64,000 nucleotides of DNA from Escherichia phage KKP 3954, in the sequence record OR067838.1; one strand, given 5' to 3'. Shown here piece after piece: positions 1,953-39,569 of the stretch. A program made the translations under genes and the position numbers. The notes below the pieces were generated by a model. That model did no database searches. It was not told where the DNA came from and saw only the letters and a program-made list of their open reading frames with translations. Within the stretch, counting starts at the first letter, position 1; every line of letters begins with the position of its first letter.

Positions 1953-3518
1953 TTAATTCGACAGGTTTTGTGCTGAAGGATCTAAAGCAGAAACAGTATC
2001 AGATGTTCCAGTCCCTGCTGTAGCTAAACCATCTCCTGATCGTGAAGTTTTGTCAGGCATATAGTTATCCATGAATTCAAAGAATTTCTCTTTATTGGCA
2101 ACAATATCGTCAGGGATGCGATATTCAAAACCAATTTTTTCAAGGAACTCGTTAATAACTTCTGGGGTTAAAGGTATTGCACCAGAGGCTACCAACTGTT
2201 GAATAGCTTTAGCATTTACTTCAATATCAGGATCACCCATTTCACCACTGACAAACTTAGGCATATCTTCATCAGAAAGGAAGATATTGTTTAGTCGTAG
2301 TGTTTGAGGGATTAGTTGAGAGTTTATAGCTTCTACAACAATATCTACATCTCGCTCAATAAAATGAGACAATAGTGTTTGTTTGTTGTCAGAAAGCGCA
2401 AAACTTCCTGCATCACCATCACCCATAATCAACACACCCGCACCAAAGCGGTTATAAATATCTAGTTTGCGTTGTTTGATTAGTGCTTGAGTGTCAAACT
2501 GTTTACCCGTGCCATCAACACCTTGGAATACAAGATCGTATTGACGCATCACTGTACCTTCATAAACGTCTGAAGGCAATACCATGTAGGCTTGCTCACC
2601 AGAGTGCAGGTTAGCGATGTTGGCTTGGAGAACTCGAAGAGATTGTGCTTCATCCCCAGCAGGATCTAAAGATGCCCTGTTTAGAATGTCACTTGGAACC
2701 TTAAGAACTGGCATACCGCCTAAATCTTTAGATACCCCAATAACCTCAAATTCCTGAATAAGAGATTTTTCACGCCAGCTACGATATACAGCTAAAAGCG
2801 GACTAACTCCTAGTGGGTTATTCTCTGTAATGTTGCTACCAACAAATAAAACTTTACTGAAAGGAATTTCTTTAATACCCGTTTCTAAAGTTGTATTACC
2901 TGGGGCTAACATTGTATTGGTGATATTCTGGTTAACAGACAAGATAGAACGTCCGTCTGCCGAATATGTAAAAGGTTGAGCCATGTGAAGAGTATCTTGT
3001 GGTCTAAAAGCCAGCTTAGTTAATCGCCAATACCCAAAGTAAGGACTCTTAGGATCTTCATCCAACTCATAAACTTTTTCTGCGAATGCAAACCCGTATT
3101 GCTTATATGTCAAAAGTGATCTAACATATTGACGTAGAGGGGCTTGCATATTACGTAACATATAATCAATAAACTTAGCAGCTTTTCTTGACTTTGCCGA
3201 GCTTACATTGTATTTTATCTTAAAATCAAAGAATGCTCTATCTACAAAGATATACGTAGCATCAAGAGCAGTAGCTACATCAGGGTCTTCACCCATCTCT
3301 TTAAAAGTTCGAATACATTCTGGGAAACGAGTCTCATAAGGCTGCATGAAATTCGTAAATGCTTTGATTGAGTTTAATCCGATCGTTCCTATTTCAGGTG
3401 ACAGGAGTAACGTTTTCTCTTTCTCTGCTTCTTTTGTTGGAGAGAGAGCAGCTTTATTTGCAGCACCTTTGTCCCAGTATTCTGACTTTTTAGTATACGT
3501 TCTTTTTCCTGTTGACAC
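1953..3518 (-). CDS. putative portal protein
   Basis: 521 aa ORF immediately downstream of large terminase; size and position typical of portal; no motif-level proof. Confidence 0.55.
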   Translation of the reverse strand: MSTGKRTYTKKSEYWDKGAANKAALSPTKEAEKEKTLLLSPEIGTIGLNSIKAFTNFMQPYETRFPECIRTFKEMGEDPDVATALDATYIFVDRAFFDFKIKYNVSSAKSRKAAKFIDYMLRNMQAPLRQYVRSLLTYKQYGFAFAEKVYELDEDPKSPYFGYWRLTKLAFRPQDTLHMAQPFTYSADGRSILSVNQNITNTMLAPGNTTLETGIKEIPFSKVLFVGSNITENNPLGVSPLLAVYRSWREKSLIQEFEVIGVSKDLGGMPVLKVPSDILNRASLDPAGDEAQSLRVLQANIANLHSGEQAYMVLPSDVYEGTVMRQYDLVFQGVDGTGKQFDTQALIKQRKLDIYNRFGAGVLIMGDGDAGSFALSDNKQTLLSHFIERDVDIVVEAINSQLIPQTLRLNNIFLSDEDMPKFVSGEMGDPDIEVNAKAIQQLVASGAIPLTPEVINEFLEKIGFEYRIPDDIVANKEKFFEFMDNYMPDKTSRSGDGLATAGTGTSDTVSALDPSAQNLSN

Positions 3519-3619
3519 TTGTTCCTCCAGTCAGGTATAAAATCGTTAAGGCAAGGCTGTATTATATACAACCTCACCTATCTAGTTATAATACACTTTA
3601 AAGTGACTTTTGTCAACAA

Positions 3620-5695
3620 TTATCTTTTACGGACACTATACGGTTGGTGAAATCCGCTGTTCATTCTACTGTATCCTGTAGGAGCATTTGTTGTTGTAGG
3701 AATAGCTACTGCCTTGAAAGTATTCTCTTTTGACAGAGTATTGAAACAAGAAGCAGCAGCATCGGGAATGTCATCTTTAATAGTGGCTGTAGATCTTTCA
3801 CCATTGAAAGATTCCAATTCTTTATAAAAGTGGGTTAGAGTTTCCACATTAGGGAAAGAATCTTCAACAATATAAACAAAACCATTTTGACACGCACTAC
3901 TAAAAGGCATAAAACGCTGAAGCTTTTTCTTGTTGCCTGGCATAGCATCTGGTTTAACAACAAAACCTTCTAGAATAAGTTTCTTTGCAGACTCTGTATA
4001 TTCTATTGTTCCAGCACCAGATGGGTCTTTAGGAAGCACTACTGTAACTTCTGGTCCATCAATCTTACATTGATTAAGAATCAGATTATCCCTTTCCCCA
4101 GGTAGTCTTCTAAACCTTCCGAAAATTTTACTTTTCTCATCCACAGCGTCATAGTCATAGTCACCAAAGATGTAGATATTACCATCCTGATCTTTACCCA
4201 TTTTGACAGACGTTGTATAGTCTGGATAACGATAAGTTTCTGTAGGAACTGAAACAGCTTTATCCCAGGCTCGCATTAGTTTAAGATTGTTAGGAACATC
4301 TTTATAAGATATTTTATGTAACCATTCACGTTGAAAGAAAGATTCTTTCTGAATACGTGCAAACCAACAACCATCCAGAAGCTGTGCTCTTTTAATTGCT
4401 GTTTGTGATTTAAGCTGTGCTAAGTAATTAGGGTTAAGCCTAATCAGTTCTGGGTTATCAAATATTGTCCCACCAATAAATACGAAAGTTTGTGGTTCAA
4501 TAACAACTGTCTCCCCTGTATTAGGGTTTTCCATGAAACAGTTTTCTGGATATTTTTCTTTCAGTTCTTCAGGTGTGTCAGCAAAAACAGGTTCATCGTT
4601 AACAATGATGAAATATTTTTGTTTACCACACATATCTTCTCTAGGATAACCACCCTCATCAAGATAAGGTAACACCCAATTCAAAACCCAACTATCTGCA
4701 TCGGGGTTACATGTGCACAACATGAAGCTTGTTTCTGATTCTGAACGCATACGTCCCAGAAGATAGAGCATTTCATATTGCGTGAAGTGGGTTAACTCGT
4801 CAAAACCTACCATTGAATACTGTATACCCTGATGGTTTGTTTCTGCTGTTACGTTATCATTTTCCAAATGGTCGAATTTGAGGGTTCCACCACCAGTGGC
4901 TTCAAAAATGATATCCATTGTACTTTCTTTTACGTGCGGTTGTAAAGGAAGATACAAACGTTTTGCTTCTGTAAACAGACCACCTGGTTTACGGTGAGCA
5001 GTGGTGTTCTTACGAAAAAGTATTCCACCAAACAAAGGATCTTTGTAGGCGTATTTTAAAGCTTTCAGCAATAGCAGACGAGACTTGCCGCTATTCCCAG
5101 TAACGAAGCAGTGATCGCCACGTCTAAAGACAATATAGCTGCTTGGAGTCTCAAAACAATATTTCTTATCATCTGTTGAAATAACCTCGTGTATTTTTAA
5201 GTAAGTGCTCTTTTTACCAGGTATGTTAAAAGGAACACGTTTACCGAATGGATTTTCTACATAACCTTGAAGGGGTTTTCCTATTTGCTGTAATGCAATA
5301 AGATCTCCTACAAGAATCTCGAAATGTTTCTTTGATTTCTTTTTCTTATAGAATACAAAACGGTGTTCCATACTAAGTTCTTGGAACAATCCTACACCAT
5401 TTGTTATTCTGTATAGGTTATCTCCATTTAAATCGTATTCTACAAAATAAGGTGTTACCAATTCTAAACGCTTATTCTTAGGATTGTATTGGTAAATATC
5501 CTCTCCTGAATATTCACTAATCTGTCTCCAACCATCTTTTGTAAGATATTCCGTTTCAGCAGAAACACATCCAGCGGCACCACCATAAATCATAACTTCT
5601 GGCATTAAATCCATTGCAAGAGTCTGTTTACCTGGTTGAGCCTTTACTTCAATATCTACTCCAGCTAAACTACCTGCTGCCTTTTTCTTTGCCAC
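3620..5695 (-). CDS. terL: terminase large subunit, intein-containing precursor
   Basis: 691 aa; Walker A split as YGGAAG / SGKS around an insert; Walker B-like VGFDELTHF; LCTCNP coupling motif; C-terminal nuclease-like region. Confidence 0.85.
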   Translation of the reverse strand: MAKKKAAGSLAGVDIEVKAQPGKQTLAMDLMPEVMIYGGAAGCVSAETEYLTKDGWRQISEYSGEDIYQYNPKNKRLELVTPYFVEYDLNGDNLYRITNGVGLFQELSMEHRFVFYKKKKSKKHFEILVGDLIALQQIGKPLQGYVENPFGKRVPFNIPGKKSTYLKIHEVISTDDKKYCFETPSSYIVFRRGDHCFVTGNSGKSRLLLLKALKYAYKDPLFGGILFRKNTTAHRKPGGLFTEAKRLYLPLQPHVKESTMDIIFEATGGGTLKFDHLENDNVTAETNHQGIQYSMVGFDELTHFTQYEMLYLLGRMRSESETSFMLCTCNPDADSWVLNWVLPYLDEGGYPREDMCGKQKYFIIVNDEPVFADTPEELKEKYPENCFMENPNTGETVVIEPQTFVFIGGTIFDNPELIRLNPNYLAQLKSQTAIKRAQLLDGCWFARIQKESFFQREWLHKISYKDVPNNLKLMRAWDKAVSVPTETYRYPDYTTSVKMGKDQDGNIYIFGDYDYDAVDEKSKIFGRFRRLPGERDNLILNQCKIDGPEVTVVLPKDPSGAGTIEYTESAKKLILEGFVVKPDAMPGNKKKLQRFMPFSSACQNGFVYIVEDSFPNVETLTHFYKELESFNGERSTATIKDDIPDAAASCFNTLSKENTFKAVAIPTTTNAPTGYSRMNSGFHQPYSVRKR
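5093..5569 (-). other. mini-intein (Hint domain) inserted in the terminase P-loop
   Basis: Residues 43-201: starts Cys (CVSAETEYLTKDGW), ends FVTGN followed by Ser; removal gives canonical GAAGSGKS; about 159 aa, too small for a homing endonuclease domain. Confidence 0.7.
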
Positions 5696-7197: not shown

Positions 7198-7276
7198 TGG
7201 AGGCGGGAATTGGATTTGAACCAATGATCTCCAGCATATGAAACTGGCGAGGACGACCAGACTCCTCTATCCCGCT
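7198..7276 (-). tRNA. tRNA-Met (anticodon CAT)
   Basis: Manual cloverleaf: CCA encoded, acceptor GGCGGGA/TCCCGCT, T-arm ATTGG-ATTTGAA-CCAAT, anticodon loop rc TTCATAT; long D-loop. Confidence 0.6.
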
Positions 7277-7280
7277 ATCA

Positions 7281-7352
7281 TGTATCCCGTGCTGGATTCG
7301 AACCAGCGTCACAATAAATTGTGGATCTCTTATCCTGTAAGTCTAACGGGAA
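7281..7352 (-). tRNA. tRNA-like element, no canonical anticodon arm (possible pseudo-tRNA)
   Basis: Perfect T-arm GCTGG-ATTCGAA-CCAGC and 6/7 acceptor complementarity, but no 5-bp anticodon stem found by hand. Confidence 0.25.
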
Positions 7353-7354
7353 AC

Positions 7355-7428
7355 TGGTTGTTTCGACAAGAATCGAACTTGTGTCTCACGATTATCAGTC
7401 GTGGGTTCTACCATTGAACTACGAAACA
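7355..7428 (-). tRNA. tRNA-Ile (anticodon GAT)
   Basis: CCA encoded; acceptor TGTTTCG/CGAAACA; T-arm ACAAG-AATCGAA-CTTGT; anticodon stem CACGA/TCGTG, loop rc CTGATAA. Confidence 0.7.
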
Positions 7429-7434
7429 TTTAAT

Positions 7435-7511
7435 TGGTCGGAATTGCAGGATTCGAACCTGCGACCCTACGCTCCCAAAGCGTATGCTCTACCAAACTGA
7501 GCTAAATTCCG
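7435..7511 (-). tRNA. tRNA-Pro (anticodon TGG)
   Basis: CCA encoded; acceptor CGGAATT/AATTCCG; T-arm GCAGG-ATTCGAA-CCTGC; D-arm GCTC-TACCAAACT-GAGC; anticodon stem TACGC/GCGTA. Confidence 0.75.
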
Positions 7512-7516
7512 TTATA

Positions 7517-7592
7517 TGGCTGGTCTGTCTGGATTTGAACCAAACCTACGACAGTCAAAGTGTCGTGTGCTACCGGACTACACTACAAACCA
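7517..7592 (-). tRNA. tRNA-Gln (anticodon TTG)
   Basis: CCA encoded; T-loop ATTTGAA; anticodon stem CGACA/TGTCG, loop rc CTTTGAC; one mismatch each in T-stem and acceptor. Confidence 0.6.
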
Positions 7593-7690
7593 ATAAATCA
7601 TTTAATGAAGGGCAACCAGAAGAAGTGTGAGAGAAGGAGAAAACCATGAGTAAAAGAGAAAGTTTTCTGGCAACCCTTTATTAAATAATT

Positions 7691-7764
7691 TGGAGCGTTC
7701 TACGAGGATCGAACTCGTGCCGCCGACTTGGAAGGACGGAATGCTACCGCTACACCAAGAACGC
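7691..7764 (-). tRNA. tRNA-Gly (anticodon TCC)
   Basis: CCA encoded; acceptor GCGTTCT/AGAACGC; T-arm ACGAG-GATCGAA-CTCGT; anticodon loop rc CTTCCAA; one mismatch in anticodon stem. Confidence 0.55.
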
Positions 7765-7775
7765 CCTATATATTT

Positions 7776-7805
7776 ACTATACTACATTTTACTATTTGTT
7801 GTCAA
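7776..7805 (-). promoter_or_regulatory. sigma70-like promoter upstream of tRNA-Gly
   Basis: Minus strand TTGACA-N18-TATAGT, placing the start site a few nt before tRNA-Gly. Confidence 0.4.
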
Positions 7806-8077
7806 GACTTTTATTGATTGGGACAGTGACGAGTATCCCGTTGGGTGACTAGCCCTACGTTCGGTAAGCTAACTTAAAATAATACAAAACCAAAGTCAAA
7901 TATTATTCTTCGTTGCTGTCGATGGGAGAGCCGCTTCTCATTTTGCCCCATCCAACCCTACTCCGGTCAAGTTTCGGGTGACTCTTTTTGTGATCAACAC
8001 AATACTAAGAACACTGTCTTTCGAGCAGACCTTGTGCACAGGAACGACGATCAATCACAATGCTCTTAATGTTGTGT

Positions 8078-8152
8078 TGGTGCTCCCACACTGAATCGAA
8101 CAGAGATCCACGGATTACAAAACCGTTGTAATAGCCATTATACTATAGGAGC
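8078..8152 (-). tRNA. tRNA-Thr (anticodon TGT)
   Basis: CCA encoded; acceptor GCTCCCA/TAGGAGC; T-loop AATCGAA; anticodon loop rc TTTGTAA; single mismatches in T and anticodon stems. Confidence 0.6.
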
Positions 8153-8158
8153 AATGCT

Positions 8159-8235
8159 GGGACTCGGCAGGATTCGATACCTGCAATTCCAGAAGCCTAT
8201 TGGCGACTGGGGGTTTACCTTAACTCTACAAGTCC
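8159..8235 (-). tRNA. tRNA-like element, unresolved fold
   Basis: T-arm-like GCAGG-ATTCGATA-CCTGC (8-nt loop) and acceptor-like complementarity GGACTCG/CAAGTCC; no canonical anticodon arm found by hand. Confidence 0.25.
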
Positions 8236-8242
8236 ATAATTC

Positions 8243-8328
8243 TGGCGATGAGTATAGGATTCGAACCTATATTGTTCTTTCGAACACGGATTAACAGTCC
8301 GCCGCTTAAACCGTTCAGCCAACTCATC
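8243..8328 (-). tRNA. tRNA with anticodon GTT (Asn-type) and an atypical 15-nt variable region
   Basis: CCA encoded; perfect acceptor GATGAGT/ACTCATC; T-arm ATAGG-ATTCGAA-CCTAT; anticodon stem ACGGA/TCCGC, loop rc CTGTTAA; extra GTTC-TTTC-GAAC hairpin. Confidence 0.45.
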
Positions 8329-8334
8329 TTAATT

Positions 8335-8422
8335 TGGTGGTGAGTGATGGAGTCGAACCACCCGAATCGCAATGATAACAGATTTACAGTCTGCCCCGCT
8401 ACCCCTACGGAATTAACTCACC
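8335..8422 (-). tRNA. tRNA-Tyr (anticodon GTA)
   Basis: CCA encoded; acceptor GGTGAGT/ACTCACC; T-loop AGTCGAA; long variable arm (class II); anticodon loop rc CTGTAAA. Confidence 0.7.
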
Positions 8423-8553
8423 TAAATACTAATATTTAAATTCTTTTTAAAATAGCCAGTGTTCGCACCACTAACTATGAGTTATCGGTAAGATGGTGGG
8501 GGGCTATCTTCCGAAAGTTTACTCTATTAAAGTAAGCTACATTAAAAAGAACT

Positions 8554-8639
8554 TGGCGGTAGATGTAGGACTCGAACCTACACGCCGTTTCCGACTACAG
8601 TTTAGCAAACTGTCGTGGCTACCATTTCACCAATCTACC
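8554..8639 (-). tRNA. tRNA-Ser (anticodon GCT)
   Basis: CCA encoded; acceptor GGTAGAT/ATCTACC; T-arm GTAGG-ACTCGAA-CCTAC; anticodon stem ACAGT/ACTGT, loop rc TTGCTAA; long variable arm. Confidence 0.75.
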
Positions 8640-8644
8640 TAATC

Positions 8645-8735
8645 TGGCGGAAGGAGGGAGAGTCGAACTCCCAAGGCTCTTTCAAGCTCGGCGGTTTTCA
8701 AGACCGTTTTCGTCGCCACATCGATTTGCCCTTCC
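8645..8735 (-). tRNA. tRNA-Ser (anticodon TGA)
   Basis: CCA encoded; T-arm GGGAG-AGTCGAA-CTCCC; anticodon stem GCGGT/ACCGT (G-U), loop rc CTTGAAA; long variable arm. Confidence 0.7.
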
Positions 8736-8969
8736 ATACTTATAATCTAACATAAAATAATGATTGTTGTCAATACTTTTTTAAAACATTTTACCATGAA
8801 TGGTGACTCCACCAACCCCCGTTCTCCACGAACGGTGCTCTTCGAGCATTTATGTCTTCTAATATAACCGTGGCCTTTGTTTATAATGTCTGACATACTT
8901 GCCTCATTCTCTGCCACCATGATCAGTAGTGGGTTCAAATCACTTGAGCTAATTCATGTTAAAATGTTC

Positions 8970-9044
8970 TGGTGTCTTTACAAGGAATCGAACCTTGACT
9001 AAGAGTTTAGAAGACTCCTGTGCTATCCATTACACCATAAAGAC
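8970..9044 (-). tRNA. tRNA-Arg (anticodon TCT)
   Basis: CCA encoded; acceptor GTCTTTA/TAAAGAC; T-arm CAAGG-AATCGAA-CCTTG; anticodon loop rc CTTCTAA. Confidence 0.7.
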
Positions 9045-9046
9045 GT

Positions 9047-9121
9047 TGGTGGCCCTGGCTGGTTTCGATCCAGCTACCTATCGGTTATGAGCCGACAGCT
9101 CTCCCATTGAGCTACAGGGCC
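9047..9121 (-). tRNA. tRNA with anticodon CAT (second copy; initiator Met or lysidine-Ile)
   Basis: CCA encoded; acceptor GGCCCTG/CAGGGCC; T-arm GCTGG-TTTCGAT-CCAGC; D-arm GCTC-TCCCATT-GAGC; anticodon loop rc CTCATAA. Confidence 0.7.
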
Positions 9122-29998: not shown

Positions 29999-30007
29999 GG
30001 AGAACTG

Positions 30008-30493
30008 ATGCGCTATCTGGTAACAGGTGGTCTTGGTTTTATTGGGAGCGCCGTGGTGCGCTCTCTTTGTCAAGATCCTAATAACGAAGTTTTTATCATT
30101 GATAAAATGGGTTATGCAGCAGACATTGAGAATGTAGGTGATATCACTCACGCTAAACTAAGCATGACAGATTTGGCAAACGAAGCCCAGGTCAAAAGTT
30201 TAGTAGTAGAGTGCAATCCCGATTTCATCATTCACTTAGCGGCAGAGAGCCATGTGGATAATTCTATCAAGAATCCACGAGCTTTCATCGACTCCAATAT
30301 TATTGGTACATACAATTTATTGGAAGCTGCAAGGCTCCTCCCAAAGAATAAACTGAAGATGTTCATACACGTCTCCACAGACGAAGTGTATACGGTGATA
30401 TGGCAGACTCTGGCGTTCCCTTTACCGAAGAGACAGCTTATGCCCCTTCAAGCCCGTACAGTGCGTCTAAGGCAGCATCTGACCATCTTGTGA
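30008..30493 (+). CDS. rmlB: dTDP-glucose 4,6-dehydratase, N-terminal part (frame-disrupted)
   Basis: VTGGLGFIGS Rossmann motif; HVSTDEVY then frame loss. Confidence 0.65.
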   Translation: MRYLVTGGLGFIGSAVVRSLCQDPNNEVFIIDKMGYAADIENVGDITHAKLSMTDLANEAQVKSLVVECNPDFIIHLAAESHVDNSIKNPRAFIDSNIIGTYNLLEAARLLPKNKLKMFIHVSTDEVYTVIWQTLAFPLPKRQLMPLQARTVRLRQHLTIL

Positions 30494-31002
30494 AAGCTTG
30501 GCACCGTACCTACGATTTACCTGTTGTGATAACCAACTGCTCCAATAACTTTGGACCCTATCAACATCCAGAAAAGCTGATCCCAAAAATCATCACAAGT
30601 ATCTTGACGAATAAAGAGATTCCGGTGTATGGTAAAGGCGATCAGGTGCGAGACTGGCTTTTTGTTGAGGATCATGCGCGAGCTATTCTTCAAGTGGCAA
30701 CAGGTGGAGAACCAGGTAAAACGTATAATGTGGGAACACGTAATCCCAAAACCAATATGGAGATCATCTATATGGTTTGTGACTACATGGATGCTGTACA
30801 TCCAGAAGCAGGAACCTACCCTTCTTCCAACTTGATAACTTTTGTTGAAGATCGTAAAGGGCATGACTTGCGTTATGAAATCAATCCTTCTAAGATAGAG
30901 TTTGAACTGGGTTGGAGTGCAAACTCTACATTTGAACAAGATCTCTACTCAACGATTGAATGGTACTTAAACAACCCTCAATGGTGGAGTGGGAAGATTT
31001 AA
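30400..31002 (+). CDS. rmlB: dTDP-glucose 4,6-dehydratase, C-terminal part in second frame
   Basis: [32 protein letters not shown] (catalytic YxxxK region) open from about 30388; about 2 nt extra at GTGTATACGG. Confidence 0.65.
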
Positions 31003-31010
31003 GGAGGGCT

Positions 31011-31889
31011 ATGAAAGGTATTATTTTGGCGGGAGGAAGTGGAACCCGCCTTCATCCGGTAACACGCAGTGTGAGCAAGCAATTGCTCCCTGTGTATGAC
31101 AAACCCATGATCTACTACCCTTTATCGGTATTGATGTTGGCTGACATTAAGGATATCTTAATCATTACCACACCAGGCGATCAGGAAGACTTTGAGTATC
31201 TTCTCGGAGATGGGTCTATGTTTGGGATAAAACTCACTTACGCAATCCAATCCGAGCCACGAGGTCTTGCGGACGCTTTCATCATCGGTAAAGATTTTAT
31301 CGGAGAAGACTCTGTTGCTCTTATTTTAGGTGACAACCTATTCTTCGGACAAAGCTTTGGTAAACTACTGATTAACGCCAGTGAGATGGTAGATGTTTGT
31401 GGCGGAGCTTGTATCTTCGGGTATTTGGTGAAAGATCCTGAACGATTCGGTGTGGTTGAATTTGGGAGTAATCGTCAAGCTATTTCTATTGAAGAGAAAC
31501 CTGAAAATCCTAAATCAGATTATGCTGTCACAGGTTTGTATTTCTATGATAACTCTGTTGTTCAACGTGCATTAGAAGTAACCCCTTCCGCGCGTGGAGA
31601 ACTGGAGATCACAGATATCAATCGCAGCTACCTCGAAGACAGGAAGTTACAAGTGGAAGTTCTCGGACGAGGATTTACTTGGCTTGACACAGGAACACAC
31701 GCCAGTCTGATGGAAGCTGGTCAATTCGTGCAGACTATTGAGAACCGTCAAGGATTGAAGATTGCGTGCCTGGAAGAAATTGCTTTCAAAAAAGGGTGGA
31801 TTTCTTTAGAGACTTTGTTGTATCATGGAAACTCACTGAAGAAAACAGAATACGGGCAATACCTACTCAAATTAGCGGAGAGAAAATGA
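31011..31889 (+). CDS. rmlA: glucose-1-phosphate thymidylyltransferase
   Basis: Track ORF 30960..31889; AGGAGGG RBS supports start [14 protein letters not shown]. Confidence 0.8.
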
Positions 31890-32452
31890 AAGTAGAAAAA
31901 ACAAAAATTGAAGGTGCGGTAATTATCAAACCAGACGTTTATAAAGATGATCGTGGTTTCTTTTTAGAAACATATAATGAACAAAAATACGAAGATATCA
32001 TTGGTAGACAAACTTTCGTTCAAGATAACATGTCTAAATCAAACTTCGGTGTTTTGCGAGGAATGCACTTTCAAACAAATAATCCGCAAGGTAAGCTTGT
32101 TCGTTGTGTAAGTGGGGAAGTATTGGATTTCGCTGTAGACCTACGTAAAGATAGTCCTACTTACGGTGCTTGGGACGGTGTTGTTCTTCGTGCACGACAC
32201 CATACACAGTTCTGGCTTCCACCTGGTTTGGCACATGGTTTTATAGTGCTGAGTATGGATGCTATCTTCGAATACAAATGCACAACTCCATACGACCCTT
32301 CCAGCGAACAAAGTTTACGTTGGGATGATCCTGATATAGGGATTGATTGGGGCTTCGATATGATTTTTGACGAAGATTTTAAACCTATCTTATCAACAAA
32401 AGATGCAATGGCTAAGTCTTTTCAACAGCTACGTAGCGAGGGTGTATGCTAA
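31886..32452 (+). CDS. rmlC: dTDP-4-dehydrorhamnose 3,5-epimerase
   Basis: Track ORF 31766..32452; start [10 protein letters not shown] overlaps rmlA stop (ATGA); cupin-type motifs DDRGFF and RGMHFQ. Confidence 0.75.
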
Positions 32453-33288
32453 CATATCTGGTATTGGGTGGTAATGGACAACTGGGACAAGCTTTACGTA
32501 AAGTGGCTCCTTCAAATGTGTCTTTAATTTATCCTAAAGAACGTGTAGATATTACAAATTTTGAAGCTGTGCGAAACGCTATTGTTGAAGATTATGTAGA
32601 TGGTGTTATTAATTGCGCTGCTTATACGGCTGTAGATAAAGCAGAACATGATTTTGCTACTGCTTTGGCTGTTAATGCCTATGGCCCTGCAAATACTGCG
32701 GCAGTGTGCAGCAAACTTAAAATTGATTTTGTGCATATTTCTACAGACTATATTTTTAATTATTCTCATCCTATTTTTGAAGATACTACACCTAACCCAA
32801 TAAACAATTATGGGTATACGAAAGAACTTGGTGAAAAAATGGTGCGAGGAGTTAACCCAAATGCATATATTATTCGAACAGCCTCGGTATATAGCGAATT
32901 TGGAAATAACTTTCTAAAAACCATGTTGTCTCGCTATAATGATGGACAACGTGATTTTATTATTGTTGCTGATCAGTTCTCTTGTCCAACATATGCCCCA
33001 GATTTAGCAGAAGCTATTTTTGAAGTATTAAAAACAGGTTGGTCAAGATCTGTAAAGACTTACCATTTTGCAGGAAGCCATCTTATTTCTTGGGCGGAGT
33101 TTGCGGAAAAGATCTTGACACAGATGCCAGAACCTGTTAAGATATCGGCGGTATCAGCTTCAACCTATAATGCTCCAGCAGCACGTCCGGTGAAGTCACA
33201 ATTAGTAACCAGTCACTATCTTACAAAATCAGATTTAAATAAAGGTATTGAACGGTCTTTAGCAGTATTACTTAATAAGGAGAGGTAA
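32446..33288 (+). CDS. rmlD: dTDP-4-dehydrorhamnose reductase
   Basis: 280 aa; N-terminal LGGNGQLG Rossmann motif; completes B-A-C-D order. Confidence 0.75.
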   Translation: MLTYLVLGGNGQLGQALRKVAPSNVSLIYPKERVDITNFEAVRNAIVEDYVDGVINCAAYTAVDKAEHDFATALAVNAYGPANTAAVCSKLKIDFVHISTDYIFNYSHPIFEDTTPNPINNYGYTKELGEKMVRGVNPNAYIIRTASVYSEFGNNFLKTMLSRYNDGQRDFIIVADQFSCPTYAPDLAEAIFEVLKTGWSRSVKTYHFAGSHLISWAEFAEKILTQMPEPVKISAVSASTYNAPAARPVKSQLVTSHYLTKSDLNKGIERSLAVLLNKER

Positions 33289-33548
33289 TGGAATTTGTAA
33301 TTTTTGGTAAACCTAACTGTCAATTTTGCGAAATGTCAAAACAACTATTAACCATGCGCAATAAACAGTTTGAATATTTAAGTCTTGACCAAGACTACGA
33401 TTTAGAATCAATGACTAAAACAGTTGTTGATCTTACCGGAGTTCCTCCACGCACATTTCCACAAATTCTGTCTGAAGTGAACGGGGAGGTAACATACGTA
33501 GGCGGTTTTACCGAACTGCGTGATCTCATGGCTCAAATTGCGGAGTAA
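33288..33548 (+). CDS. glutaredoxin / NrdH-like thioredoxin (T4 NrdC-like)
   Basis: 86 aa; CQFC active site near N-terminus; ATGA overlap with rmlD. Confidence 0.7.
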   Translation: MEFVIFGKPNCQFCEMSKQLLTMRNKQFEYLSLDQDYDLESMTKTVVDLTGVPPRTFPQILSEVNGEVTYVGGFTELRDLMAQIAE

Positions 33549-34211: not shown

Positions 34212-34215
34212 TAAA

Positions 34216-34229
34216 GGGGCTTCGGCCCC
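34216..34229 (+). terminator. GGGGC-UUCG-GCCCC hairpin (weak U-tract)
   Basis: Same 14-nt hairpin as at 28046 and 46308, right after lysozyme stop. Confidence 0.4.
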
Positions 34230-34248
34230 TTCTAAAAGGAGTGCTACT

Positions 34249-35007
34249 ATGGGAAATAAAACCGCAGCTAAAACACAACGGCAGAAACTGGCTAATTCAG
34301 CAAAGATTGAAAGCCGTTATGCAGCAAAAGCGGTAGGTAATGACGATTACCGTTTAGATGAATTTATGCCTGAAGGGGACCAAAATAAGATTGTTCAAAG
34401 CATGATTTGGAATGATCTGACTGTTGTAAATGCTCCGGCAGGGACTGGTAAAACCTCTGTTGCTTTATGGAAAGCTTTGCAGATGCTTCGTTCAGGAGAC
34501 TTCCGTAAACTACTTTTTATCAAGAACCCTACTGAAGTCGGAGATGATCAGATTGGTTTCTTGTCTGGGGATAAAACAGATAAACTAGCAGCACACTATG
34601 AATCTACAAAACGTATTTTCCAGCAATTCATGACAGCCAACAAATTGGAAAACGATATTGGATCAGGTAAGATCGAATTGAATATTCCTAACTATTTGTT
34701 GGGAGCTACCCTGGATAATACAATTGTCATTATTGACGAAGCACAACTTATGTCAACAGAAACACTTAAACTTCTTATTGAACGTGCAGGTATTAATACG
34801 CATGTTATTGTATTAGGCGATGTTCGCCAGACATATGCAATTAAAAAACGTAGCAATGGTCTGCATCAAATTTTGGAACTTTTATATCCAGAAAATGAAG
34901 AAGGTGTTCGTGAGCCAATTGTAGATTTTATTGGATATGTTGAACTGACAACGGACGATAATAAACGTGGACGTTTGTCTAAACTGATTACTGAAGTGTT
35001 TATTTAA
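34249..35007 (+). CDS. phoH: PhoH-like ATPase
   Basis: Track ORF 34198..35007; AAGGAG RBS supports start MGNKTAAK; Walker A NAPAGTGKTSVAL; Walker B VIIDEAQL. Confidence 0.8.
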   Translation: MGNKTAAKTQRQKLANSAKIESRYAAKAVGNDDYRLDEFMPEGDQNKIVQSMIWNDLTVVNAPAGTGKTSVALWKALQMLRSGDFRKLLFIKNPTEVGDDQIGFLSGDKTDKLAAHYESTKRIFQQFMTANKLENDIGSGKIELNIPNYLLGATLDNTIVIIDEAQLMSTETLKLLIERAGINTHVIVLGDVRQTYAIKKRSNGLHQILELLYPENEEGVREPIVDFIGYVELTTDDNKRGRLSKLITEVFI

Positions 35008-35039: not shown

Positions 35040-35543
35040 TTGATGGGTGTAGCAACAATAGCTATCGGAAGAAGCGGTATAGATGAGTGCTATCAAACGG
35101 GACTCGTAAAACCTAACGAATTTCGTCAAATTTGTGTAAACCATATTGAAAAAGAGATTGCTCTTACTTTAGAGAATATGACCCTCCGAGATAAACTGGA
35201 AATGTTTAAATGTTGGTGTCTAGGAGAAGATTGGCTTTTAAACCATTTTCAAGAACTTTCTGATAGTAAAGAAAGCTTGTTTGATTGTATAATAGGAATA
35301 GCTGGCTCCGATCCTAGCCTTCTGCACATAACAGAAGAAGAGGCGAAGTTACTGTTCTTAAGTAATTTGTTTAATAAGAAAGCACTGCTTGTTCGTGATT
35401 GCAGTGATCTTCTTAATAACCCGCTCGCAACGTCTGATCAAATTTTTGTTGACAAAGAGACACTACGTGCGATAGAATACATCTGCAAATATGTGAATGG
35501 CGGGAAAGCGGTTCTTAAAACATTAACAGAGGAGGAAGAATAG
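35040..35543 (+). CDS. hypothetical protein
   Basis: 167 aa; AGGAGG RBS. Confidence 0.55.
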   Translation: MMGVATIAIGRSGIDECYQTGLVKPNEFRQICVNHIEKEIALTLENMTLRDKLEMFKCWCLGEDWLLNHFQELSDSKESLFDCIIGIAGSDPSLLHITEEEAKLLFLSNLFNKKALLVRDCSDLLNNPLATSDQIFVDKETLRAIEYICKYVNGGKAVLKTLTEEEE

Positions 35544-36235
35544 TGACGACAATTATTGCAACCAAAAATAAGATTTTGAGTGACGGTAAGGTAACTTTTG
35601 GTGGACGTGTAGATTCTATTAATTTCAAAAAGGTCCGAAAAATTGGAGATTACCTTGTAGGTGGTGCTGGTCGTCTGACCTCCGTGCTTTCTTTCTTTCA
35701 ATGGTTTGAACAAAATCTACAGTGCGAAGCAGCACGTGATGCTGTCCCTGGTTTGATGATTCACTCTGATCCAGATAAAGAAGATGAAGAGTTTATTGCA
35801 CTTGTTGTTCATCCTGACGGACGTATTTTCCTGCACGAAGGTAACAACCCAACACGTGCATATCCGATTGATGAAGAATATTATGCGGTAGGAAGCGGGT
35901 CAGACTTTGCTTTAGCTGCTCTTGATGCAGGGGCAACACCAGAACAGGCTATGGAAGTAGCTAAAAAGCGAGATGCTTTTTCTGGTGGTGAAACATTTGT
36001 TGAAGAACAAGATGAGATTATTGAATTAACAGACGATGATTTAGAAAACTTCTCCAAAGAAGAATTGATCAATCTTTTGAAATTCGGTAATCCCTACGGT
36101 GAAGAAGAACCTCGTAACGTGGCAGGTAACGAGGCGGATACTGAAGAAAAATCTGTTGCAGAAAACAACTTGACTTCTAAATCTGAAAATATTAATCTCG
36201 TAAATGTGGCGGATTTCGAAGGAACCGCTATTTAA
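35543..36235 (+). CDS. HslV-like (proteasome beta-type, Ntn-hydrolase) peptidase
   Basis: 230 aa; GTG start giving M-TTIIA (N-terminal Thr nucleophile); GGAGRLTS and AVGSGSDFALAALDAG resemble HslV; acidic C-terminal extension. Confidence 0.6.
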   Translation: MTTIIATKNKILSDGKVTFGGRVDSINFKKVRKIGDYLVGGAGRLTSVLSFFQWFEQNLQCEAARDAVPGLMIHSDPDKEDEEFIALVVHPDGRIFLHEGNNPTRAYPIDEEYYAVGSGSDFALAALDAGATPEQAMEVAKKRDAFSGGETFVEEQDEIIELTDDDLENFSKEELINLLKFGNPYGEEEPRNVAGNEADTEEKSVAENNLTSKSENINLVNVADFEGTAI

Positions 36236-36241
36236 CAAACT

Positions 36242-36255
36242 GCCCCTTCGGGGGC
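36242..36255 (+). terminator. GCCCC-UUCG-GGGGC hairpin
   Basis: Stem-inverted variant of the recurrent UUCG hairpin, right after the HslV-like gene. Confidence 0.4.
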
Positions 36256-36280
36256 ATTTCTTAAACATAGGAGATTAATA

Positions 36281-36716
36281 ATGTTACAAGTTCCTGCTAA
36301 GTTTGTTGAAGGCGCTATCCACTCTTACCGTCAAACATGTAAGAGGGCAAGAAACTGTTTAGATGGTCTGGTGGCAAAAACCTATACTGTTGAAAAAGAA
36401 AAAACGTTGGTTTGGCAAAGATGTTTACGAAGTTAATATTTTTGGTGAACATAAACTAAACCACGATACTCCTGAAAACATGTTAGAAATATTTCTAAGA
36501 GATGACAAAATATCTCCTATGGATTACCAACTTTTAAAATTTTATGATTCTTCTTTGGCTATTGATAAGTTTGTTGAAGATATTCTGTCTAGAAAAACAG
36601 ATAAAAACACTTATCCTCTAGAGGCTGATCAAATAGGATTATTAAACGAGATTTCATCCTTTAAAGAGTTGGATAATATTACAAAAGAGGAGATTTTAGA
36701 TGGCATTAGATTATGA
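36281..36716 (+). CDS. hypothetical protein, frame-disrupted at a poly(A) run
   Basis: Strong RBS TAGGAGATTAATA-ATG at 36281 (frame open to about 36436); track ORF 36363..36716 in another frame; frames overlap across AAAAAGAAAAAA. Confidence 0.45.
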
Positions 36717-38499: not shown

Positions 38500-38829
38500 A
38501 TGGAAATTACTACAGAACAAGCCCTTATCGACGAGGGTCGTAAAATCTTAGAAAAGCATTTAGGGGAGATTCATAAAACTCCTGGCTATTTGGGTTGGAG
38601 AATTGTTGAAGCTGTAGATTTCCTTCCTCGTAACAGTAAAAGCGTCGAAATGCGATCTCTTTTCTTATTAGTAAAGGTGGATGGGGATACACCTTTTAAA
38701 GATGCCGCAGAGCATATTGAAAAAGTTGAAGAGAAAGCTTATGCAGAATTTGCCGATCTTGTTTTAGAACAAAAGATTGAAGGAAAGGTGAATATTTTTA
38801 TTTTCTTAGATTTTGAGGAGGATAAGTGA
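38500..38829 (+). CDS. hypothetical protein
   Basis: 109 aa; GGAGGAAGG RBS. Confidence 0.55.
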   Translation: MEITTEQALIDEGRKILEKHLGEIHKTPGYLGWRIVEAVDFLPRNSKSVEMRSLFLLVKVDGDTPFKDAAEHIEKVEEKAYAEFADLVLEQKIEGKVNIFIFLDFEEDK

Positions 38830-39569
38830 TCATACATAGAGAAATTACTGTTAAAAGCGATCAAGATCTTTTTATAATTGGAGATCTACACGGTTGTTAT
38901 AATTTGTATGAAAAAGGAAAGGCAAAGTTAGGTATCCGAGATACAGATGTAGTTGTATCTTTAGGAGATCTTACTGACCGTGGAAAGCAAAACTTTCGTT
39001 GTGTTTTAGAATTTACTCGTAAACACAATCGCTACGCTATTCGTGGAAATCATGAAGACATGATGATTAAAGGTATGCTGGAAGGAGATCGTAGCTACTT
39101 CGAGTGTTGGTATCAAAATGGAGGATATACAGTCCTTGAAGAATGTGGTGAAGAAGGAGCTACAGCCTTAGCAATGATGACAGAAGATTTACCTGTTGTT
39201 CTCATTGTTAACTACAGAGGCATGAAACTTGCGTTTATTCATGGTGGGTATCCATCTTCTTTGGAATATCTCCCTGTAACAGATATTCCAGAATACACTT
39301 TGAAGATGACAAAAACACAGGAAAACCGTTTTGCTGAAGCACTTATGTGGGACAGAGATATGGTGGACTGTGCTAAAGAGGGAATGAAACTTCCTGTTGT
39401 GATGGGTGTGGACTATGTGTTTCATGGACACTCTTATGTAAAAACACCTATTATCAATGCGAATCGTGTTTATATGGATACTGGATCTGTGTTCAATAAT
39501 AACTTAACATTTGCTTATTTCGATATGGACGGTGGTCTTCAATTTTATTCAACTCTTGAGGAGGATTAA
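38826..39569 (+). CDS. Ser/Thr protein phosphatase (PPP family, lambda-phosphatase-like)
   Basis: 247 aa; GTG start; motifs GDLHG, GDLTDRG, RGNHE. Confidence 0.75.
   Translation: MIIHREITVKSDQDLFIIGDLHGCYNLYEKGKAKLGIRDTDVVVSLGDLTDRGKQNFRCVLEFTRKHNRYAIRGNHEDMMIKGMLEGDRSYFECWYQNGGYTVLEECGEEGATALAMMTEDLPVVLIVNYRGMKLAFIHGGYPSSLEYLPVTDIPEYTLKMTKTQENRFAEALMWDRDMVDCAKEGMKLPVVMGVDYVFHGHSYVKTPIINANRVYMDTGSVFNNNLTFAYFDMDGGLQFYSTLEED

Follow-up and report, generated by a model that had tools for sequence, protein, structure and literature searches.

Is the proteasome-like gene at positions 35543-36235 of Escherichia phage KKP 3954 a phage copy of bacterial HslV that could pair with the host unfoldase HslU, or another member of the same superfamily that works on its own? 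We analysed it within a stretch of 64,000 nt of the phage genome (sequence record OR067838.1; the whole stretch is called the window below), which is that of a phAPEC8-like Phapecoctavirus (myovirus) and shares 99.8% identity with phage vB_Ec-G1. The protein is present at 99% identity or above in about 50 deposited genomes, and its RefSeq name in Phapecoctavirus genomes is "peptidase HslV family" (YP_009986169.1 of phage nieznany; phAPEC8_0094). These RefSeq entries and those of PHROG 1040 are the same gene at 99-100% identity and are annotation labels only. Gene identity and family are already known from this annotation and from a sequence survey of proteasome homologues (Fuchs, Alva and Lupas, 2021; PMC8665760); the present analysis adds a conserved helical module in the C-terminal tail and a natural deletion of the active site in phage VEcB. 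The RefSeq name overstates the relation to HslV. The best explanation of all the observations, to which we give a probability of roughly 0.62, is a catalytically competent threonine peptidase of the PPH/RPC branch of proteasome homologues, which would lack the second apical helix (H2) and would not be an HslV orthologue. The gene, its start signals and its catalytic core are as follows.

35530-35535, + strand: Shine-Dalgarno sequence AGGAGG, 7 nt 5' of the GTG start
35543-36235, + strand: peptidase coding sequence, PPH-type proteasome homologue, GTG start, TAA stop at 36233-36235, 230 amino acids (aa)
35546-35548, + strand: codon of Thr2, the predicted nucleophile, numbered Thr1 after Met removal
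35543-36007, + strand: predicted N-terminal nucleophile (Ntn) core, aa 1-155, from the structure model and the alignment

The open reading frame (ORF), its GTG start and the Thr directly after the initiator Met had been reported in a preliminary description of this DNA, and all three are in place. The protein begins M-TTIIA (MTTIIATKNKILSDGK...), and the window sequence holds no in-frame start further 5' of the GTG at 35543. This start is supported by the MT(T/V)(I/V) N-terminus of most of the approximately 150 cluster representatives of the family; Thr is the second codon in this phage and in five diverged phage homologues, with ATG, GTG or TTG as start codons, and the starts in the five homologues are preceded by Shine-Dalgarno-like sequences. 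Some GenBank records begin the gene at Met72 and thereby lose the active site (P0023, 159 aa); the conservation of MTT(I/V) throughout the family speaks for mis-annotation of such starts. The stop codon TAG of the upstream ORF (35541-35543) shares its G with the GTG of the peptidase gene, and this overlap by one base suggests that the two are translationally coupled. With Thr as the second codon and no earlier in-frame start, the peptidase has no propeptide. Methionine aminopeptidase of the host accepts Thr as second residue, and deformylase plus aminopeptidase remove the initiator Met. Autocatalytic N-terminal processing, which had been suggested, is therefore not needed to expose Thr1.

Several independent searches link the protein to the proteasome superfamily. 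It scored 25.6 bits against Pfam PF00227 (Proteasome; gathering score 22.4, E = 1.1e-5) and matched PHROG 1040 ("peptidase HslV family") over its full length with an E-value of 1e-63. Among PDB sequences, phmmer found T. maritima HslV (1m4y) at E = 5e-9 and E. coli HslV at about 6e-5; 20S beta subunits and BPH came after the HslV chains at marginal scores. An AlphaFold2 (AF2) monomer model, built from a 42-sequence alignment, has the alpha-beta-beta-alpha Ntn fold with a mean predicted local distance difference test score (pLDDT) of 84.7 and values above 90 in the core. When this model was compared with PDB by Foldseek, HslV ranked first (E about 1e-10, target-normalised template modelling (TM) score about 0.69), ahead of BPH and then of archaeal and eukaryotic 20S beta subunits. 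The search returned 869 PDB chains at E<=1e-3, and the 50 best-ranked chains listed were all HslV, BPH or 20S subunits. A viral structure library gave 48 structures at E<=1e-3, the best small match being a 131-aa protein of the Caulobacter phage CcrColossus (TM score 0.89, root-mean-square deviation 2.2 A). The HslV/proteasome beta-type signatures noted earlier, GGAGRLTS (aa 40-47) and AVGSGSDFALAALDAG (aa 115-130), are present, and the Pfam, PHROG and PDB matches lie far beyond chance. The comparison of profiles and structures with HslV that the preliminary description had proposed as a check thus came out in its favour, with a proteasome-type match and a predicted fold that is Ntn rather than non-Ntn. 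Judged from sequence and model together, the protein is a phage-encoded N-terminal-threonine hydrolase of the proteasome/HslV superfamily.

In the modelled core, strands (aa 3-43) lead into a long helix (45-67), an acidic loop (68-83) and further strands (84-117), followed by helices at 120-128 and 133-143 and a last strand at 151-155. The core motifs are Asp14, Lys30, G40-G43, G117-S118-G119 and R143-D144-x-x-S147-G-G. T2, D14, K30 and G40/G43 align to T1, D17, K33 and G45 of E. coli HslV. When 1.84 billion proteins were scanned exhaustively with phmmer, 2,350 clusters at 50% identity matched at E<=1e-3, and 138 aligned representatives of these served to count residue conservation. The nucleophile position is Thr in 135 of the 138 and Ser in the other 3; Lys30 (equivalent to Lys33) is invariant (138/138), and Asp14 (equivalent to Asp17) is kept in 136. 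Gly43 is retained in 137, while position 40 is Gly in 112 and Ala in 22. Ser118 is Ser in 118 representatives and Thr in 14 (S/T in 132), and Asp144 is conserved in 124. This near-invariance of catalytic residues argues for selection on catalysis. The protein is probably an active Thr1 peptidase of the PPH type that is matured by Met removal, the activity being read from these conserved residues.

Which branch of the superfamily does it come from? In the accessible text of the survey, PPH and RPC are the sole homologues without H2, PPH is about 140 aa long, and RPC has C-terminal extensions and is listed for proteobacteria only, not for phages; the published representatives are WP_042125023.1 for PPH and WP_140207863 for RPC (PMC8665760). 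The same text reports that no AAA+ partner or informative gene context was found for PPH/RPC, and that in BPH a long acidic pore loop accompanies independence from an unfoldase (PMC8665760). Like PPH/RPC, the protein keeps the catalytic core with H2 absent in the model, has no propeptide and is encoded by tailed phages of proteobacteria. Among about 50,700 phage records, 235 contain the family, with Escherichia, Vibrio, Caulobacter, Aeromonas and Rhizobium among the hosts, and it also occurs in 349 IMG/VR stretches. Its nearest relatives without a C-terminal tail are phage proteins of 130-155 aa that start with MTT(I/V) and score 55-70 bits; the true HslVs of T. maritima and E. coli score 39 and 26 bits. 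The size of 230 aa, made up of a core of about 155 aa plus 75, fits an RPC-style C-terminal extension, yet RPC is not listed for phages. Sequence and model point to membership in the phage-specific H2-less PPH/RPC branch; the choice of PPH over RPC is indirect and draws on the published descriptions, on these small relatives without a tail and on the 131-aa CcrColossus match.

The distance from HslV is clear at several levels. Against the NCBIfam HslV equivalogs NF003964 and TIGR03692 the protein reached 32.2 and 31.4 bits, far below the cut-offs of 137 and 157.75. Instead of two apical helices, H1 and H2, the AF2 model shows the helix 45-67 followed at the H2 site by the acidic loop 68-83 (VPGLMIHSDPDKEDEE, net charge -5). 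The pocket of HslV that receives the C-terminal tail of HslU consists of F54, F57, Q114 and A79/K80, the last two contributed by H2 (PMC6429459). At these positions the phage protein has Leu for F54 and Phe for F57, Arg or Pro (by alignment) for Q114, and an unalignable or gapped region for A79/K80; Phe is also kept at the hydrophobic H1 position F60. In E. coli HslV, Lys28 makes a salt bridge with the C-terminal carboxylate of HslU. The equivalent residue here is Ser, at a position that is not conserved within the family. We found no AAA+ gene beside the peptidase in the Escherichia, Aeromonas, Vibrio, Caulobacter and Rhizobium phage neighbourhoods examined, the rest of the phage genome not having been scanned. 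Of the earlier label "HslV-like peptidase", the superfamily part stands and HslV proper does not: the equivalog cut-offs fail, H2 is absent in the model, and the protein clusters with PPH-group phage proteins. By sequence and predicted structure it is not an HslV orthologue. Pairing with host HslU, which had also been put forward, is unlikely because the pocket is not preserved and lacks its H2 part, with Ser standing in the place of Lys28. We consider it likely that the enzyme would act without HslU or any dedicated ATPase.

The second distinctive part of the protein is its extension of about 75 aa past the core (aa 156-230), with 20 D/E and 5 K/R residues (net charge -15), which falls into two portions.

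36011-36088, + strand: conserved helical module, aa 157-182, DEIIELTDDDLENFSKEELINLLKFG, from the family alignment and AF2
36089-36232, + strand: variable acidic stretch, aa 183-230, net charge -8, low pLDDT

The family consensus of the module is EE..LT(R/K)E(D/E)L..(M/L)(S/T)KEEL(L/I)..(L/I)F(G/P), followed by an acidic run; AF2 places helices at 164-169 and 172-181 with a pLDDT of about 90. At least 25 residues past the core are present in 73 of 139 aligned proteins, and about 47-60 of these 73 tailed proteins, mutually below 50% identical, have the module in common. Beyond it the sequences diverge fully, even among close relatives. The pLDDT, still about 77 over aa 181-190, is about 46-54 in the residues from aa 191 onward, a drop which suggests that this stretch is probably disordered. 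A tail of 60 acidic residues had been described: its acidity holds, its length is about 75 aa, and it is not a plain appendage given the conserved helical module at aa 157-182. The module did not prove to be a known domain (best profile match against PDB at E = 0.16, no Pfam match), and it does not recur elsewhere in the ORFs of the window. A further idea, that the extreme C-terminus mimics the activating peptide of HslU (...EDLSRFIL), was dropped: the last 40 residues are unconserved even at 70-80% identity, and the D-D-L-x-x-F likeness to the HslU peptide is weak and internal to the module, not C-terminal. We propose tentatively, at somewhat less than even odds, that the module serves assembly, gating or docking. 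Some relatives carry extra C-terminal domains that are Cys-rich or end in ...KWRLHNA. The metagenomic relatives P0061-P0071 (264-379 aa) have an extra domain with paired Cys motifs and the terminus ...(K/Y)W(R/K)L(H/A)(N/D)(A/E).

The peptidase gene is the last of a three-gene cassette whose first two members are given below.

34249-35007, + strand: PhoH-like P-loop ATPase, first cassette gene, preceded by a hairpin at 34213-34232
35043-35543, + strand: PHROG 14834 gene, starts MGVATIAIGRSG, upstream of and translationally coupled to the peptidase gene

A natural deletion bears on the need for this cassette. In Escherichia phage VEcB (MT932211), the gene vecB_055 (2165-2968 of its locus) joins the first 113 residues of PhoH, in frame, to the part of the peptidase that begins at residue 64; the deletion of about 1.3 kb has removed the C-terminal half of PhoH, the whole PHROG 14834 gene and the catalytic N-terminus of the peptidase. 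VEcB was isolated as a plaque-forming phage. Its viability despite the deletion suggests that the cassette is accessory, and it is probably dispensable under laboratory conditions. The genes around the cassette are nucleotide-sugar, ribonucleotide reductase, lysozyme and PhoH genes on one side and DNA methyltransferase genes on the other, and the context is non-structural in Vibrio, Aeromonas, Caulobacter and Rhizobium phages as well.

Taken together, the following mechanism may be proposed. Host deformylase and methionine aminopeptidase would strip the initiator Met and expose Thr1, which would work with Asp14, Lys30, the Gly-rich oxyanion loop 40-43 and Ser118/Asp144 as in 20S beta and HslV. 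The enzyme would have no dedicated AAA+ partner and most probably would not use host HslU, with an acidic loop at the H2/pore-loop site as in the unfoldase-independent BPH. The module at aa 157-182 would be an assembly, gating, or partner- or substrate-docking element. The peptidase, its gene lying in the non-structural arm, may have an accessory, host-directed function during infection, and its substrates would presumably be unfolded proteins or particular proteins of the host or the phage. From the features described above we infer the enzymatic activity, the oligomeric state, the independence from HslU, the role of the tail and the substrates. Several points weigh against this account. The absence of H2 comes from a single AF2 monomer model in which the loop has a pLDDT of 74-89, and the segment from H1 to the next strand, 39 aa, is near the 41 aa of E. 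coli HslV. HslU independence is argued from missing features, and all hosts known for these phages belong to the proteobacteria, where HslUV is generally present. The deletion seen in VEcB may stem from faulty assembly of the sequence, or the phage may compensate for it. The literature on phage HslV/PPH gave no biochemical or genetic work, only annotation mentions and the 2021 bioinformatic survey.

Could the protein instead substitute for HslV, assembling into a double hexamer whose canonical tail pockets engage host HslU and redirecting the host unfoldase to substrates chosen by the phage? HslV chains are its top sequence and fold matches among solved structures, the H1 positions F57 and F60 are still Phe, and HslUV should be at hand in hosts that are all proteobacteria. 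Scores far under the equivalog cut-offs, the missing H2 from which the pocket would take A79/K80, the Lys28 to Ser change at a position unconserved in the family, and the lack of an AAA+ interactor in the accessible text of the survey (PMC8665760) make this quite improbable. Somewhat better placed, and still unlikely, is a sequence-specific enzyme acting as a monomer or small oligomer (an endopeptidase, or a transpeptidase/ligase like connectase) in which the tail module positions one substrate. Connectase, a proteasome homologue without part of the H1/H2 pair, can be a monomeric and highly specific ligase, and some homologues may form no stacked rings according to Fuchs et al. (PMC8665760); the phage protein likewise lacks H2 in the model and its tail module is conserved. 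Against this, the model has no connectase-like S3/S4 insertion over the active site, its best fold matches are HslV, BPH and 20S beta, and no conserved neighbour offers itself as a substrate.

An inhibitor or decoy of host proteolysis, whose subunits co-assemble with or cap host HslV or other factors with the acidic tail as a mimic, would suit a protein of the same superfamily as host HslV, with a strongly acidic, probably disordered tail and a gene among host-interaction genes. The catalytic residues are near-perfectly conserved in the 138 representatives, which argues for selection on catalysis, and the family members of about 140 aa have no tail, so we regard a decoy as very unlikely. Phages commonly encode maturation proteases, and processing of virion proteins had been suggested for this gene. 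It is unlikely because the gene lies outside the structural module, in the nucleotide-metabolism/host-interaction arm; since the location is also non-structural in the Vibrio, Aeromonas, Caulobacter and Rhizobium phages and VEcB is viable without the catalytic N-terminus, a prohead or tail maturation protease is the least probable of these alternatives. An H2-less threonine peptidase of the PPH/RPC branch remains our preferred explanation. One extension of it is speculative and, in our estimate, rather unlikely: the tailed subfamily may be a self-sufficient phage "mini-proteasome", whose module docks in cis or in trans at the H2/HslU-tail site as a built-in activator, gate or adaptor for the selective destruction of particular host proteins, such as factors of defence or stress response, with no ATPase involved. 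If so, target specificity would lie in the acidic stretch, which is variable, and in the additional C-terminal domains of relatives.

We also examined the cassette and its surroundings. The PHROG 14834 protein has a confident all-alpha AF2 model (pLDDT 91) and the invariant motifs CYQxGxVKPNEFRQ, VRDCSD and DKETLRA; it gave no fold relative in PDB and no match in Pfam, NCBIfam or PADLOC. It co-occurs with the peptidase in close relatives only and is an orphan family limited to this phage group. The idea that it is a degenerate, inactive proteasome-like subunit came from an Aeromonas phage in which two "HslV family" genes are neighbours, and was rejected: there is no sequence similarity, and the model is all-alpha with no relative among solved structures. 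In that phage, 4L372D, the two proteasome-like genes (3432-3983 and 4001-4885 of its locus) encode a 183-aa protein starting MTCIIAL and a 294-aa homologue. Two family members occur in 6 of 85 related loci, and hetero-oligomers are conceivable; tblastn found no second PPH paralogue in the window. All-versus-all clustering of ORFs from the 85 loci revealed no co-conserved partner gene beyond lineage-specific synteny, the commonest neighbour family being present in 15 loci and PhoH in 13. PADLOC gave no matches, and a defence or anti-defence label was not supported. Two transcription signals were considered.

35449-35478, + strand: sigma-70-like promoter match (11/12), TTGACA-18-TAGAAT, within the 3'-terminal part of the upstream ORF
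36241-36262, + strand: GC-rich hairpin with a UUCG loop, TGCCCCTTCGGGGGCA, and TTTCTT, 6 nt 3' of the stop codon, stem-loop at 36241-36256

The promoter was not retained as a dedicated one: its hexamers lie in the conserved VDKETLRAIEY codons and are kept in some relatives only, which makes promoter function doubtful. UUCG hairpins bracket the cassette (GGGGC-TTCG-GCCCC at 34213-34232 and GCCCC-TTCG-GGGGC at 36241-36256). Relatives at 60-75% identity have a hairpin with a T-run directly 3' of the peptidase gene, its position kept and its sequence different, and the downstream hairpin is likely a terminator or mRNA-end hairpin.

Further along, the downstream gene at 36281-36716 (PHROG 15078; its counterpart in phage nieznany has 144 aa) is broken into two frames by an extra A at 36393-36397 (A5 vs A4). 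Nearly all close relatives align 2000 nt to the 2001-nt query across the region with this A-run; the split is a true frameshift or else an error of sequencing or assembly. Correspondence with phage nieznany indicates an accessory-gene arm at about 30000-33288, 33288-33548 and 38826-39569 onward in the window, with a dTDP-rhamnose pathway (RmlA/B/C/D-like), glutaredoxin, a NinI-like Ser/Thr phosphatase, DprA-like and Sir2-like proteins and several DNA methyltransferases. Ten tRNA genes lie at 7198-9121 on the - strand (Met x2, Ile, Pro, Gln, Gly, Thr, Asn, Ser, Arg).

The interest of the gene lies in the question of its function rather than in its identity in the window. Phage-borne proteasome homologues are common, and what they degrade in infection is a possible new class of phage-host interaction; unfoldase independence, if shown, would bear on the regulation of proteasome-like peptidases. 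Of practical value are a corrected label (PPH-type, not HslV, with HslU pairing unlikely) and two experimental handles, the conserved module of the tail and the deletion that occurs naturally in VEcB.

Three known systems can be set beside the phage protein. HslV is its best match among solved structures and shares with it the Thr straight after the initiator Met and the aligned Asp17, Lys33 and GSG motif. It differs in that identity is 22-28%, that the phage protein lacks H2, the HslU pocket, Lys28 and an hslU neighbour and adds the C-terminal module and tail, and that RDxFSGG, typical of 20S beta, stands where HslV has GDICIYTN. In fold, BPH of Thiobacillus denitrificans (5ovs) ranks second after HslV (E about 4e-10). 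No unfoldase is known for this Thr peptidase, which acts on its own and carries an acidic loop at its pore; the phage protein has its acidic loop at the equivalent site. Unlike the phage protein, BPH keeps H1 and H2, forms double heptameric rings and has no C-terminal module, and the sequence similarity of the two is marginal (E = 1.1). From PPH, at about 140 aa, the phage protein is set apart by its core (about 155 aa), by the greater length of the acidic loop at the site of H2 and by the 75-aa extension, whose conserved module is not mentioned for PPH/RPC in the accessible text of the survey (PMC8665760). As described there, PPH is nonetheless the closest in kind: a Group-I homologue with catalytic Thr1/Asp/Lys and oxyanion Gly, without propeptide, H2, AAA+ partner or informative context, which shares with the phage protein a compact core that lacks S12/H5 and its home in tailed phages of proteobacteria (PMC8665760).

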